A stretch of DNA of 64,000 nucleotides. It comes from Escherichia coli (GTDB lineage: Bacteria > Pseudomonadota > Gammaproteobacteria > Enterobacterales > Enterobacteriaceae). The translations under genes were made by a program, and so were the position numbers. The stretch lies in the NCBI RefSeq assembly GCF_017348835.2, contig NZ_CP071375.1, one strand, 5' to 3'. This document shows positions 44,701 through 46,414 of the stretch, one piece after another (the first letter of the stretch is position 1; each line of letters opens with the position of its first letter). The notes under the pieces were generated by a model that ran no database searches, was not told where the DNA came from, and saw only the letters and a program-made list of their open reading frames with translations.

Positions 44701-45888
44701 GGCCGCAGGGTGGCAAAACGGGTATGGCGACGTGAACGGGACCTGACGGGCTGGATGTCGCTGTCACGGAAACCGGAAGTGACCTGGTACGGCTGGGACG
44801 GCGACCGCCTGACCACAATACAGAACGACAGAACCCGCATCCAGACGATTTATCAGCCGGGGAGCTTCACGCCACTCATCAGGGTTGAAACCGCCACCGG
44901 TGAGCTGGCGAAAACGCAGCGCCGCAGCCTGGCGGATGCGCTTCAGCAGTCCGGCGGCGAAGACGGTGGCAGTGTGGTGTTCCCGCCGGTGCTGGTGCAG
45001 ATGCTCGACCGGCTGGAAAGTGAAATCCTGGCTGACCGGGTGAGTGAGGAAAGCCGCCGCTGGCTGGCATCGTGCGGCCTGACTGTGGAGCAGATGCAAA
45101 ACCAGATGGACCCGGTGTACACGCCGGCGCGAAAAATCCACCTGTACCACTGCGACCATCGCGGCCTGCCGCTGGCGCTTATCAGTGCGGAAGGGGCTAC
45201 AGAATGGTGCGCAGAATACGATGAATGGGGCAACCTGCTGAATGAAGAGAACCCGCATCAGCTGCAGCAGCTTATCCGCCTGCCGGGGCAGCAGTATGAT
45301 GAGGAGTCCGGCCTGTATTACAACCGCCACCGCTATTATGACCCGCTGCAGGGGAGGTATATCACTCAGGATCCGATTGGGCTGAAGGGGGGATGGAATT
45401 TTTATCAGTATCCGTTGAATCCGATAACTGATATTGACCCGTTGGGATTAGCGACCTGTTTATACAGCATAACTTTAAGTATGCTTTCATGCGTTTCAGA
45501 TACGCAAAATGATGATAACTCTTATGATGTGCTTACTATTCCTGTCGCCTCTGGTAATAATGGTAATAATATGCAATGTAAAAATAATCCTGGTTGTACA
45601 CACTTACAAAATAGAGGTCCAATACCTCAAGGGGTATGGAGCTGGAATGTTAATGGTCCTGGAGCAACCAATAGAAAACCTAATGGTATACGTTTAGTAC
45701 CGTCAGCAAATACAGAAACATATAATCGTGATGGATTTTTAACACATAGTTGTTTAAACGCTTTCGGTCCGTCTTTAGGACCTCGATTCTGTTCCGAGGG
45801 TTGTATAACTGGTTCATCTAATGACATGCAAAAATTAAATGAGTTAATATTTTCAGAGCCAGATAGCACATTAACAGTTACGGACTAA
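41710..45888 (+). pseudogene. rhsA: Rhs polymorphic toxin RhsA with YD repeats, divergent C-terminal tip, and an in-frame TGA at 43450..43452
   Basis: ORFs 41710..43452 and 43459..45888 are in the same frame; N-terminus MSGKPAARQGDMTQYGG…, YD-repeat core and PxxxxDPxGL boundary ([11 protein letters not shown]) read directly; the stop replaces a Leu as I recall K-12 RhsA. Confidence 0.75.
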
Positions 45889-45976
45889 AAAATATGGCAA
45901 AGTTATTAACAATTGTATTTTTTTCTCTATTTCTGCGAGTGCAGTTACTGCAAGACAATTTCAGAGAGAGTTAGAT

Positions 45977-46414
45977 TTGGCAGACAAAGCAATATTATGG
46001 GCACTAATATCAGCCAGTACTAAAGAGGGACGAAAAGCGTGTTCACTTAGCTATTTTGCCTGTAAGGCCGCAGAGGCTGAACTCGGACTGGCATATATGG
46101 CTGCGAATGATAACAAGGAATTTCTCACATCCTTATCTAATATAATGAGGTACAAAATAGATGCTGGACTTTCCGAATCCTATACATGCTATTTATTAAG
46201 TAAGGGAAAGATCATAAGACCATATCTGAAAAATCTAAATCCACTCCAACTTGCCGCTGATTGCATTGAAACAGTAAATAAAATAAAAGATAAGAATAAA
46301 AAAATCATTGATATAAATTCAGTTAATATTTGTAGTGATGATAAAAATATAAAATTGAGAGTTAATAGTACTATTATGGCCATTGATGATTCTATAAAAT
46401 GCATCGATGAATAA
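45977..46414 (+). CDS. Putative cognate immunity protein for the RhsA C-terminal toxin
   Basis: 145-aa low-GC ORF immediately downstream of the rhsA tip; assignment is by genomic context only. Confidence 0.45.
   Translation: MADKAILWALISASTKEGRKACSLSYFACKAAEAELGLAYMAANDNKEFLTSLSNIMRYKIDAGLSESYTCYLLSKGKIIRPYLKNLNPLQLAADCIETVNKIKDKNKKIIDINSVNICSDDKNIKLRVNSTIMAIDDSIKCIDE

Follow-up and report, generated by a model that had tools for sequence, protein, structure and literature searches.

The rhsA locus in a 64,000-nucleotide stretch of Escherichia coli DNA (assembly GCF_017348835.2, contig NZ_CP071375.1; the whole stretch is called the window below) encodes, with a probability that we put at roughly 0.8, a polymorphic Rhs toxin with an exchangeable tip of the Tlde1/DUF2778 L,D-transpeptidase type and a cognate Imm57 immunity protein. 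As part of the same reading, the tip would act on peptidoglycan in the periplasm of neighbouring cells and would have reached the main rhs gene from an orphan cassette. The reading is carried by the Rhs architecture of the gene, the boundary of the tip, its L,D-transpeptidase fold, its conserved catalytic residues and an adjacent Imm57 gene with an export signal in intact alleles, all of which were established directly here. The copy in the window is predicted to be doubly inactive, through a nonsense codon in rhsA and through the loss of the Imm57 signal peptide at a run of seven T (T7). An earlier note on this DNA, made from the letters alone, had correctly recognized an Rhs toxin/immunity cassette and missed the inactivation of both genes; with the family already known and the system inactivated here, the case is an ordinary one.

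Architecture of the rhs gene and boundary of the tip

On the plus strand the rhs reading frame spans 41710-45888, with an interruption by an in-frame TGA at 43450..43452 (+), nonsense codon 581 of rhsA, where the window reads cag TGA att. In the list of open reading frames (ORFs) it is split by this codon into pieces of 580 and 809 amino acids (aa) in the same frame. Codons 1-580 (41710..43449, +) comprise the N-terminal region, with a literal KPAAR at residues 4-8, a DUF6531 domain (Pfam, E 5.6e-17) and YD/RHS repeats, the latter matched in rhs by TIGR01643 and by several Pfam RHS_repeat hits. Based on the NCBIfam RHS_core model NF041261, this part covers model positions 1-588 of 1261 with 1199 bits, and the second part of the core (43453..45450, +), which continues in the same frame up to the PxxxxDPxGL motif, covers positions 590-1261 with 1419 bits. 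Both halves are therefore covered by the model, for which the cut-off is 2000 bits for the whole protein.

The end of the core is sharply defined. The motif PxxxxDPxGL is encoded at 45418-45450 and its DPLGL at 45436-45450; the Rhs_assc_core model TIGR03696 (E 1.2e-23, residues 589-666) ends exactly at DPLGL, as does NF041261, and the tip begins exactly where these two models end. Past the motif, GC content drops from about 0.62 to about 0.36; in 200-nucleotide (nt) windows along the stretch it is 0.56-0.66 for the core, 0.36-0.40 for the tip and 0.20-0.40 for the DNA downstream. The boundary motif and the drop in composition described by the earlier note are thus both present, and the tip, estimated there at roughly 145 aa, is exactly 145 aa long (45451-45885) and is followed by the stop TAA at 45886-45888. 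The low-GC ORF of 145 aa reported at a distance of 88 nt from the toxin stop was also recovered, at 45977-46414 with a TTG start. With an Imm57 domain encoded downstream of a tip that starts at the end of the core models, the proposed toxin/immunity arrangement is borne out.

Family and fold of the tip

The tip and its stop (45451..45888, +) encode a Tlde1/DUF2778-type domain of the L,D-transpeptidase fold. The tip matches Pfam Tlde1_dom (PF10908, formerly DUF2778) with E-values of 4.8e-7 and 3e-7. A search of 1.84 billion representative proteins returned 164 relatives, many of which form the C-terminus of Rhs-sized proteins of 1378-1570 aa while others are free-standing proteins of 120-150 aa, and an alignment of 61 sequences was made. 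Within this alignment 51 of the 61 relatives match Tlde1_dom individually at E<=0.001 (best 2.3e-16), and weak YkuD matches are found in 12. The AlphaFold model of the tip built on the alignment is of high confidence (predicted local distance difference test score, pLDDT, 93.8; predicted template modelling score, pTM, 0.89), and fold comparison identifies it as a YkuD-type L,D-transpeptidase fold. Its two best structural matches are the dedicated L,D-carboxypeptidases Pgp2 and Csd6. A Foldseek search of the AlphaFold database returned DUF2778/Tlde1 proteins, including Rhs proteins of Shigella sonnei with a 99% identical tip. The exact full-length Rhs protein is present on 32 contigs and has already been named 'DUF2778 domain-containing protein' by a public source.

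The earlier note had considered the toxin activity unassignable and the tip possibly a member of an uncharacterised C-terminal toxin family. In keeping with that idea, a phmmer search of the tip against all PDB sequences gave no match even at E 10, NCBIfam holds no model for the tip (and gave only noise for Imm57), and the Pfam E-value of the single sequence, 4.8e-7, is modest. The PF10908 matches extend across the family, however, the fold match is unambiguous and the catalytic residues are conserved; moreover, the databases already label the tip DUF2778 and its architecture is already in the literature. We give a new family next to no credence, and this candidate was rejected on the Pfam matches in relatives, the fold match and the Foldseek matches to DUF2778/Tlde1 proteins.

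Active site and proposed mechanism

Across the 61 aligned sequences S115, G117 and C118 are invariant, and H99, R93, P57, P59 and G61, among others, are nearly so (H99 in 60 sequences, C118 in all 61). The His99 codon lies at 45745-45747 and the S115-E-G-C118 motif at 45793-45804, with the Cys118 codon at 45802-45804 (all +). In a profile alignment with Tlde1a, an effector of Salmonella Typhimurium, H99 pairs with H121, C118 with C131, S115 with S128, G117 with G130 and R93 with R115. H121 and C131 are essential for the toxicity of Tlde1a, and R115 and G130 have been reported as conserved across Tlde1 subfamilies.

The Rhs-borne subfamily has additional features, namely a hairpin at the N-terminus flanked by C3/C14, a CKNNPxC motif and, separating the catalytic His from the catalytic Cys, a loop of 9 residues flanked by C101/C114. 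The six non-catalytic cysteines of the tip are present or absent together across the family, a pattern that would be consistent with three disulfides and with action outside the cytoplasm. A pairwise disulfide map from cysteine co-occurrence was tried and rejected, as all six vary together and the pairs are unassignable.

We propose that the Rhs shell would enclose the tip, that autoproteolysis at the PxxxxDPxGL boundary would free it, and that a type VI secretion system (T6SS) would carry it into an adjacent cell. Once in the periplasm, the tip would use its Cys118/His99 site to attack the bond between meso-diaminopimelate and D-alanine (mDAP3-D-Ala4) in the tetrapeptide stems of peptidoglycan, the reaction being L,D-carboxypeptidase cleavage, D-amino-acid exchange or both, by analogy with Tlde1a. 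The D,D-transpeptidases would be starved of acceptor stems, and the wall would become badly cross-linked and weakened. Sibling cells would be safe, Imm57 being exported via its Sec signal peptide to bind and block the toxin in the periplasm. Tlde1a is toxic only if directed to the periplasm; from this analogy, the signal peptide of Imm57, the leaders on five distant immunity genes and the co-varying cysteines, we infer a periplasmic site of action.

Several observations weigh against this account. The exact reaction is its least certain step, as it would be carried over from Tlde1a, which is only 18% identical to the tip over the structural alignment. The canonical motif H-x(n)-(S/T)-H-G-C-h is not found in the tip, which has S115-E116-G117-C118-I119, and position 116 is E, A, K or Q in the family, with His in 0 of 61 sequences. 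In Tlde1a the residue at this place, H129, helps to orient D-Ala4 for cleavage, and changing it lowers carboxypeptidase and cross-linking activity while D-amino-acid exchange is kept; with Glu116 in its stead, the balance of activities in the tip may differ. The tip profile matched solved structures weakly (E 0.04-0.6), so that, with the phmmer search of PDB also empty, it was the fold comparison that settled the question of the family. At the N-terminus the Pfam PAAR_motif match is marginal (E 0.18 over 18 residues). There are no T6SS genes in the 64-kb window, and T6SS delivery of this Rhs protein would follow from what holds for Rhs proteins in general. Finally, the TGA at 43450-43452 could be a sequencing error.

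The same fold might also act on another L,D-type bond, for example by cleaving or forming the link between Lpp and peptidoglycan (as for DpaA and LdtA-C) or through aberrant 3-3 cross-links. The best structural matches, Pgp2 and Csd6, are however dedicated L,D-carboxypeptidases, and the Arg and Gly of the exchange pocket (R93=R115, G117=G130) are conserved in the tip. Thus, we consider a different reaction rather unlikely and retain attack on the mDAP3-D-Ala4 bond as the probable activity.

The Imm57 gene and its signal peptide

The 145-aa ORF downstream of the tip (45977..46414, +, TTG start) matches Pfam Imm57 (PF15596) with E 2.7e-48 over model positions 1-100 of 100. Its description as an immunity gene therefore holds with regard to the family; its boundaries do not hold, as the intact gene encodes 173 aa including a signal peptide, and the ORF in the window is the Imm57 domain without that peptide. 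The gene begins with an ATG at 45894, 5 nt past the toxin stop, and opens MAKLLTIVFF.... In the window this 5' part (45894..45976, +), which contains the ATG and the signal-peptide region, is out of frame with the rest of the gene; it reads MAKLLTIVFFSLFLRVQLLQDNFRES and ends at a stop after 26 codons. The T7 homopolymer tract lies at 45918..45924 (+), and a tract of eight T (T8) would restore the frame. One extra T is indeed present in strain PS10-3, where T8 gives a 173-aa protein reading MAKLLTIVFFFSISASA/VTARQFQRELDLADKAILW... (the slash marks the Ala-x-Ala site); intact 173-aa alleles read MAKLLTIVFFFSISASA/VTARQFQRELDLADK.... The N-terminus of the intact protein has a basic start (MAK), a hydrophobic stretch and an Ala-x-Ala site (SASA/V), and is predicted to be a typical Sec signal peptide. 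The PGAP annotation pipeline flags the T7 versions as 'frameshifted' in PE164 and F2_81, where the sequence is identical to that of the window, and in ETEC6335. A complete Imm57 gene with an export signal was thus not found in the window, on account of the T7 frameshift.

The model of intact Imm57 (pLDDT 84) is an all-alpha repeat with only generic HEAT/ARM-like resemblances. The family has been described as mostly alpha-helical with conserved D, SE and C (Zhang et al. 2012, PMC3482391). A 6-sequence Imm57 alignment shows the motif D-AGLSE-SYTC, in which D90 and C99 do not vary, and the mature protein has six cysteines.

Toxin and immunity gene also co-occur among distant relatives, as an Imm57 gene lies directly downstream of the metagenome Rhs tips P0061 and P0065, which are only 50-53% identical to the tip in the window. 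The genes that follow five distant Rhs homologues, these two among them, all have hydrophobic N-termini. In P0071, P0093 and P0135 the tip is followed by a signal-peptide protein without a Pfam match, and the pairing with Imm57 is therefore common and not universal. In a further metagenome Rhs, P0081 (7536-7755), a related LD-peptidase tip (49% identity) precedes a gene for an extracytoplasmic function (ECF) sigma factor and no Imm57 is called; the gene for immunity may be absent here, or too short to have been called.

The 145-aa protein could in principle be a real cytoplasmic immunity protein that starts at the TTG, with the toxin acting in the cytoplasm. Gene calls for this ORF exist on hundreds of contigs (414 for P0211, 242 for P0212), and yibV of K-12 is annotated from the same TTG. 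All full-length homologues carry N-terminal signal peptides, though, including those that are 25-48% identical, both Imm57 and the tip are rich in cysteines in even sets, and the toxin family targets the periplasmic cell wall. We therefore regard a cytoplasmic pair as very improbable.

Inactivation in the window and the T-run across E. coli

No uninterrupted frame of the kind found in an Rhs polymorphic toxin is present in the window, owing to the TGA at 43450-43452. Where the window has TGA, the pig strains PE164 and F2_81, to which it is nearly identical, have TTA (Leu581), a single T-to-G change at 43451. Over 13 kb nothing else separates the window from PE164, and in its first 56 kb the two differ by 3 substitutions, this one included. 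Both pig strains encode an intact Rhs protein of 1392 aa (WP_096220420.1).

The length of the T-run was surveyed in 5426 complete E. coli genomes using exact matches of 71/72-mers, which replaced probes of 40 and 41 nt that had matched nothing, presumably because of low-complexity masking. The K-12-type allele (Arg3) was found with T7 in 3212 and with T8 in 38 genomes, and the window-type allele (Lys3) with T7 in 16 and with T8 in 28. The totals are 3228 exact T7 against 66 exact T8, so that T7 accounts for ~98% of the exact-matching genomes, K-12 included. The frame is kept in a third allele, GTG CTT TTT TTC. The out-of-frame T7 is thus the norm in E. coli and nearly fixed, as would suit a cassette that survives mainly as a relic. 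T7 and T8 each occur on the Lys3 as well as on the Arg3 background, which points to repeated slippage or recombination.

These observations bear on whether the locus might work as it stands. The TGA would in that case be an error or be read through, and enough exported Imm57 would be made if the polymerase or the ribosome slipped on the T-run, or if translation began at the ATT at 45905. The two closest complete genomes have TTA and the intact Rhs together with the same T7 tract, the exact intact protein recurs on the 32 contigs mentioned above, the T7 is carried by nearly all exact-matching genomes, and some sources annotate a 169-aa product starting MNNCIFF.... On the other hand, there is no in-frame ATG, GTG or TTG start upstream of 45977, and a run of seven T is short for efficient slippage. 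Decay is visible elsewhere, in the multiple frameshifts of K-12 yibW, in the 111-aa yibV and in strain PI24, and Imm57 is intact in both genomes in which an intact Rhs bears the other allele of the tip. A functional locus is accordingly unlikely in our view, and we keep to the prediction that both genes are inactive.

Given the near-fixation of T7 and the presence of both lengths on both backgrounds, the T-run could also be a slippage-prone switch, with exported immunity produced at a low level or turned on by +1 slippage, and with lineages that arm the toxin without exported immunity driven to silence rhs. If true, this would account for the silencing of rhs in the form of the nonsense codon of the window and the decayed fusion of PI24. 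We consider such a switch a long shot.

Orphan cassettes and fusion to the main gene

To describe the distribution of the system, a 1161-nt cassette was compared with the same 5426 genomes. It is found in 3707 of them, always on the chromosome. In ETEC6335, PS10-3 and 6409 the cassette makes up the end of the rhsA locus, as an orphan module of a core fragment, the tip and Imm57 behind a full rhs with a tip and immunity gene of its own (rhsC/ybfB, rhsB/yhhH, yibA). The orphan tip ORF is intact in ETEC6335 and PS10-3, with the same amino-acid sequence as the tip in the window. To judge from the sequences, the cassette in most E. coli is a promoterless orphan behind another rhs tip/immunity pair. 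In the lineage of the window, the orphan tip was joined to the full-length gene by a deletion reaching from the main rhs core to the core fragment of the orphan. All of 44970-45450 is nearer to the orphan copy (98.4%) than to the main-gene copy (94%). The window thus shows an orphan tip that a deletion has moved up into the main gene, a route that was reportedly described in Salmonella by Koskiniemi et al. in 2014.

Direct fusions were identified from individual records. A BLAST count of 923 genomes with >=80% coverage overcounts them, as it includes joined pieces and long orphan fragments, 6409 being an orphan on inspection. Five candidates suggested by annotation, out of 40 listed records, were examined, the other 883 records with at least 80% coverage being left out. 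All 5 have a full-length rhs fused directly to the tip, with nothing between yibF and Imm57. Of these, PE164 and F2_81 have an intact Rhs and a T7-frameshifted Imm57, Ec73552 and 2013C-4282 carry the other allele with both Rhs and Imm57 intact, and in PI24 both genes are decayed. Based on the 40 listed records, a full-length rhs that ends directly in this tip looks uncommon.

Where Imm57 is defective, the rhs gene is broken in 2 of the 3 fusion lineages (the window and PI24), and the two fusions with an intact Imm57 keep an intact Rhs. The pattern hints that an armed toxin is selected against where exported immunity is lacking, in a sample far too small to carry weight.

Neighbouring features of the window

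Downstream of Imm57 and up to yibH, the AT-rich tail of the rhsA locus (46415..46873, GC 0.20-0.40) is non-coding. It is 96.5% identical to a K-12 stretch with the pseudogene yibU and includes a 52-aa ORF at 46619-46777.

Three other loci were noted. At 54931-59778 (+) there is an intact 1615-aa ORF for a YadA-like trimeric autotransporter with an extended signal peptide region (ESPR), which is split by IS3 in the sister strain PE164; the insertion is absent from the window, whose DNA is therefore not that of PE164 itself. A gene for a Fic family protein, mapped from positions 146447-147742 of the PE164 record to ~34778-36073 (-), is located between yiaY and aldB; presumably no such gene occupies this position in K-12. 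Lastly, a gene with an integrase core domain, a remnant of an insertion sequence (IS) mapped from 177500-178546 of the PE164 record to ~3974-5020, adjoins the hokA type I toxin gene.

Comparison with known systems

The finding is already known, as both halves of the cassette are in named Pfam families, their pairing was published in 2012 and the exact protein is labelled in databases. In the list of Zhang et al., Tox-LD-peptidase is associated with RHS repeats and T6SS and has Imm16 and Imm57 as its immunity families (Zhang et al. 2012, PMC3482391). Sibinelli-Sousa et al. described the DUF2778 superfamily and its Rhs-DUF2778 fusions, which are mainly in the third family and are exemplified by Shigella sonnei, and tied these fusions to the Imm57 prediction of Zhang et al. 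(Sibinelli-Sousa et al. 2020, bioRxiv 10.1101/2020.02.18.954545). The Rhs-DUF2778 fusions of the Tae7 (later Tlde1c) group and the Tox-LD-peptidase/RHS/Imm57 arrangement have the same architecture and the same immunity family as the window. The cassette in the window is the same entity as these, which were described on purely bioinformatic grounds, and its tip probably belongs to Tlde1 subgroup c. In the literature, experimental work was found neither on this Rhs tip nor on Imm57 or yibV.

Another of the closest known systems is Tlde1a/Tldi1a of Salmonella Typhimurium (STM14_0336/0335; PDB 7UMA), a T6SS effector with L,D-carboxypeptidase and L,D-transpeptidase-exchange activity and ~18% identity to the tip. 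Tlde1a is a free-standing cargo effector of 173 aa, whereas the toxin in the window is the tip of a 1392-aa Rhs. The motif is SEGC in the tip and SHGC in Tlde1a, and the catalytic His and Cys are separated by 19 residues in the tip, including the Cys-bracketed loop, compared with 10 in Tlde1a. The tip also has an additional N-terminal beta-hairpin bracketed by cysteines, and its immunity protein is the all-alpha Imm57 in place of DUF2195. Csd6 of Helicobacter pylori and Pgp2 of Campylobacter jejuni are housekeeping L,D-carboxypeptidases that shape cells and are not toxins; they have extra domains, and they are 12-14% identical to the tip.

With regard to origin, orphan rhs-CT/rhsI modules, in which CT is the C-terminal tip, keep a stretch of core upstream of DPxGL through which they can recombine homologously with the main gene (Poole et al. 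2011, PMC3150448). The window shows the product of such recombination, but with loss of function of both genes following or accompanying it.

As a discovery the cassette is of little importance, and its practical value is modest. It provides a natural example of how an orphan Rhs tip can come to be part of the main gene, and a clean experimental target, given that no bench test is apparent for an Rhs-borne SEGC Tlde1-type toxin or for any Imm57.

A counterpart is found in K-12, where yibS/yibW/yibV (with yibU) at the end of the rhsA locus form the same cassette in the same chromosomal place. In the K-12 locus record (8640-9681), yibS can be read as a decayed core fragment, yibW as the LD-peptidase tip and yibV as an Imm57 remnant. 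The earlier note had called the tip unlike that of K-12 RhsA; the pair in the window does differ from the K-12 RhsA-CT/YibA pair, and the statement stands for RhsA-CT itself, but a decayed copy of the same cassette lies further down the K-12 locus. There it is the third module, after rhsA-yibA and yibJ-yibG, whereas in the window the tip is joined to the main rhs. Several frameshifts disrupt the yibW tip (86% identity, 13 gaps) and yibV is cut to 111 aa, whereas the coding sequence of the tip in the window is intact; yibV, annotated as 'PF15596 family protein', shares its TTG start and its T7 tract with the window. Through this comparison two K-12 y-genes can be read concretely, yibW as the decayed tip of an L,D-peptidase toxin and yibV as the remnant of its Imm57 partner.

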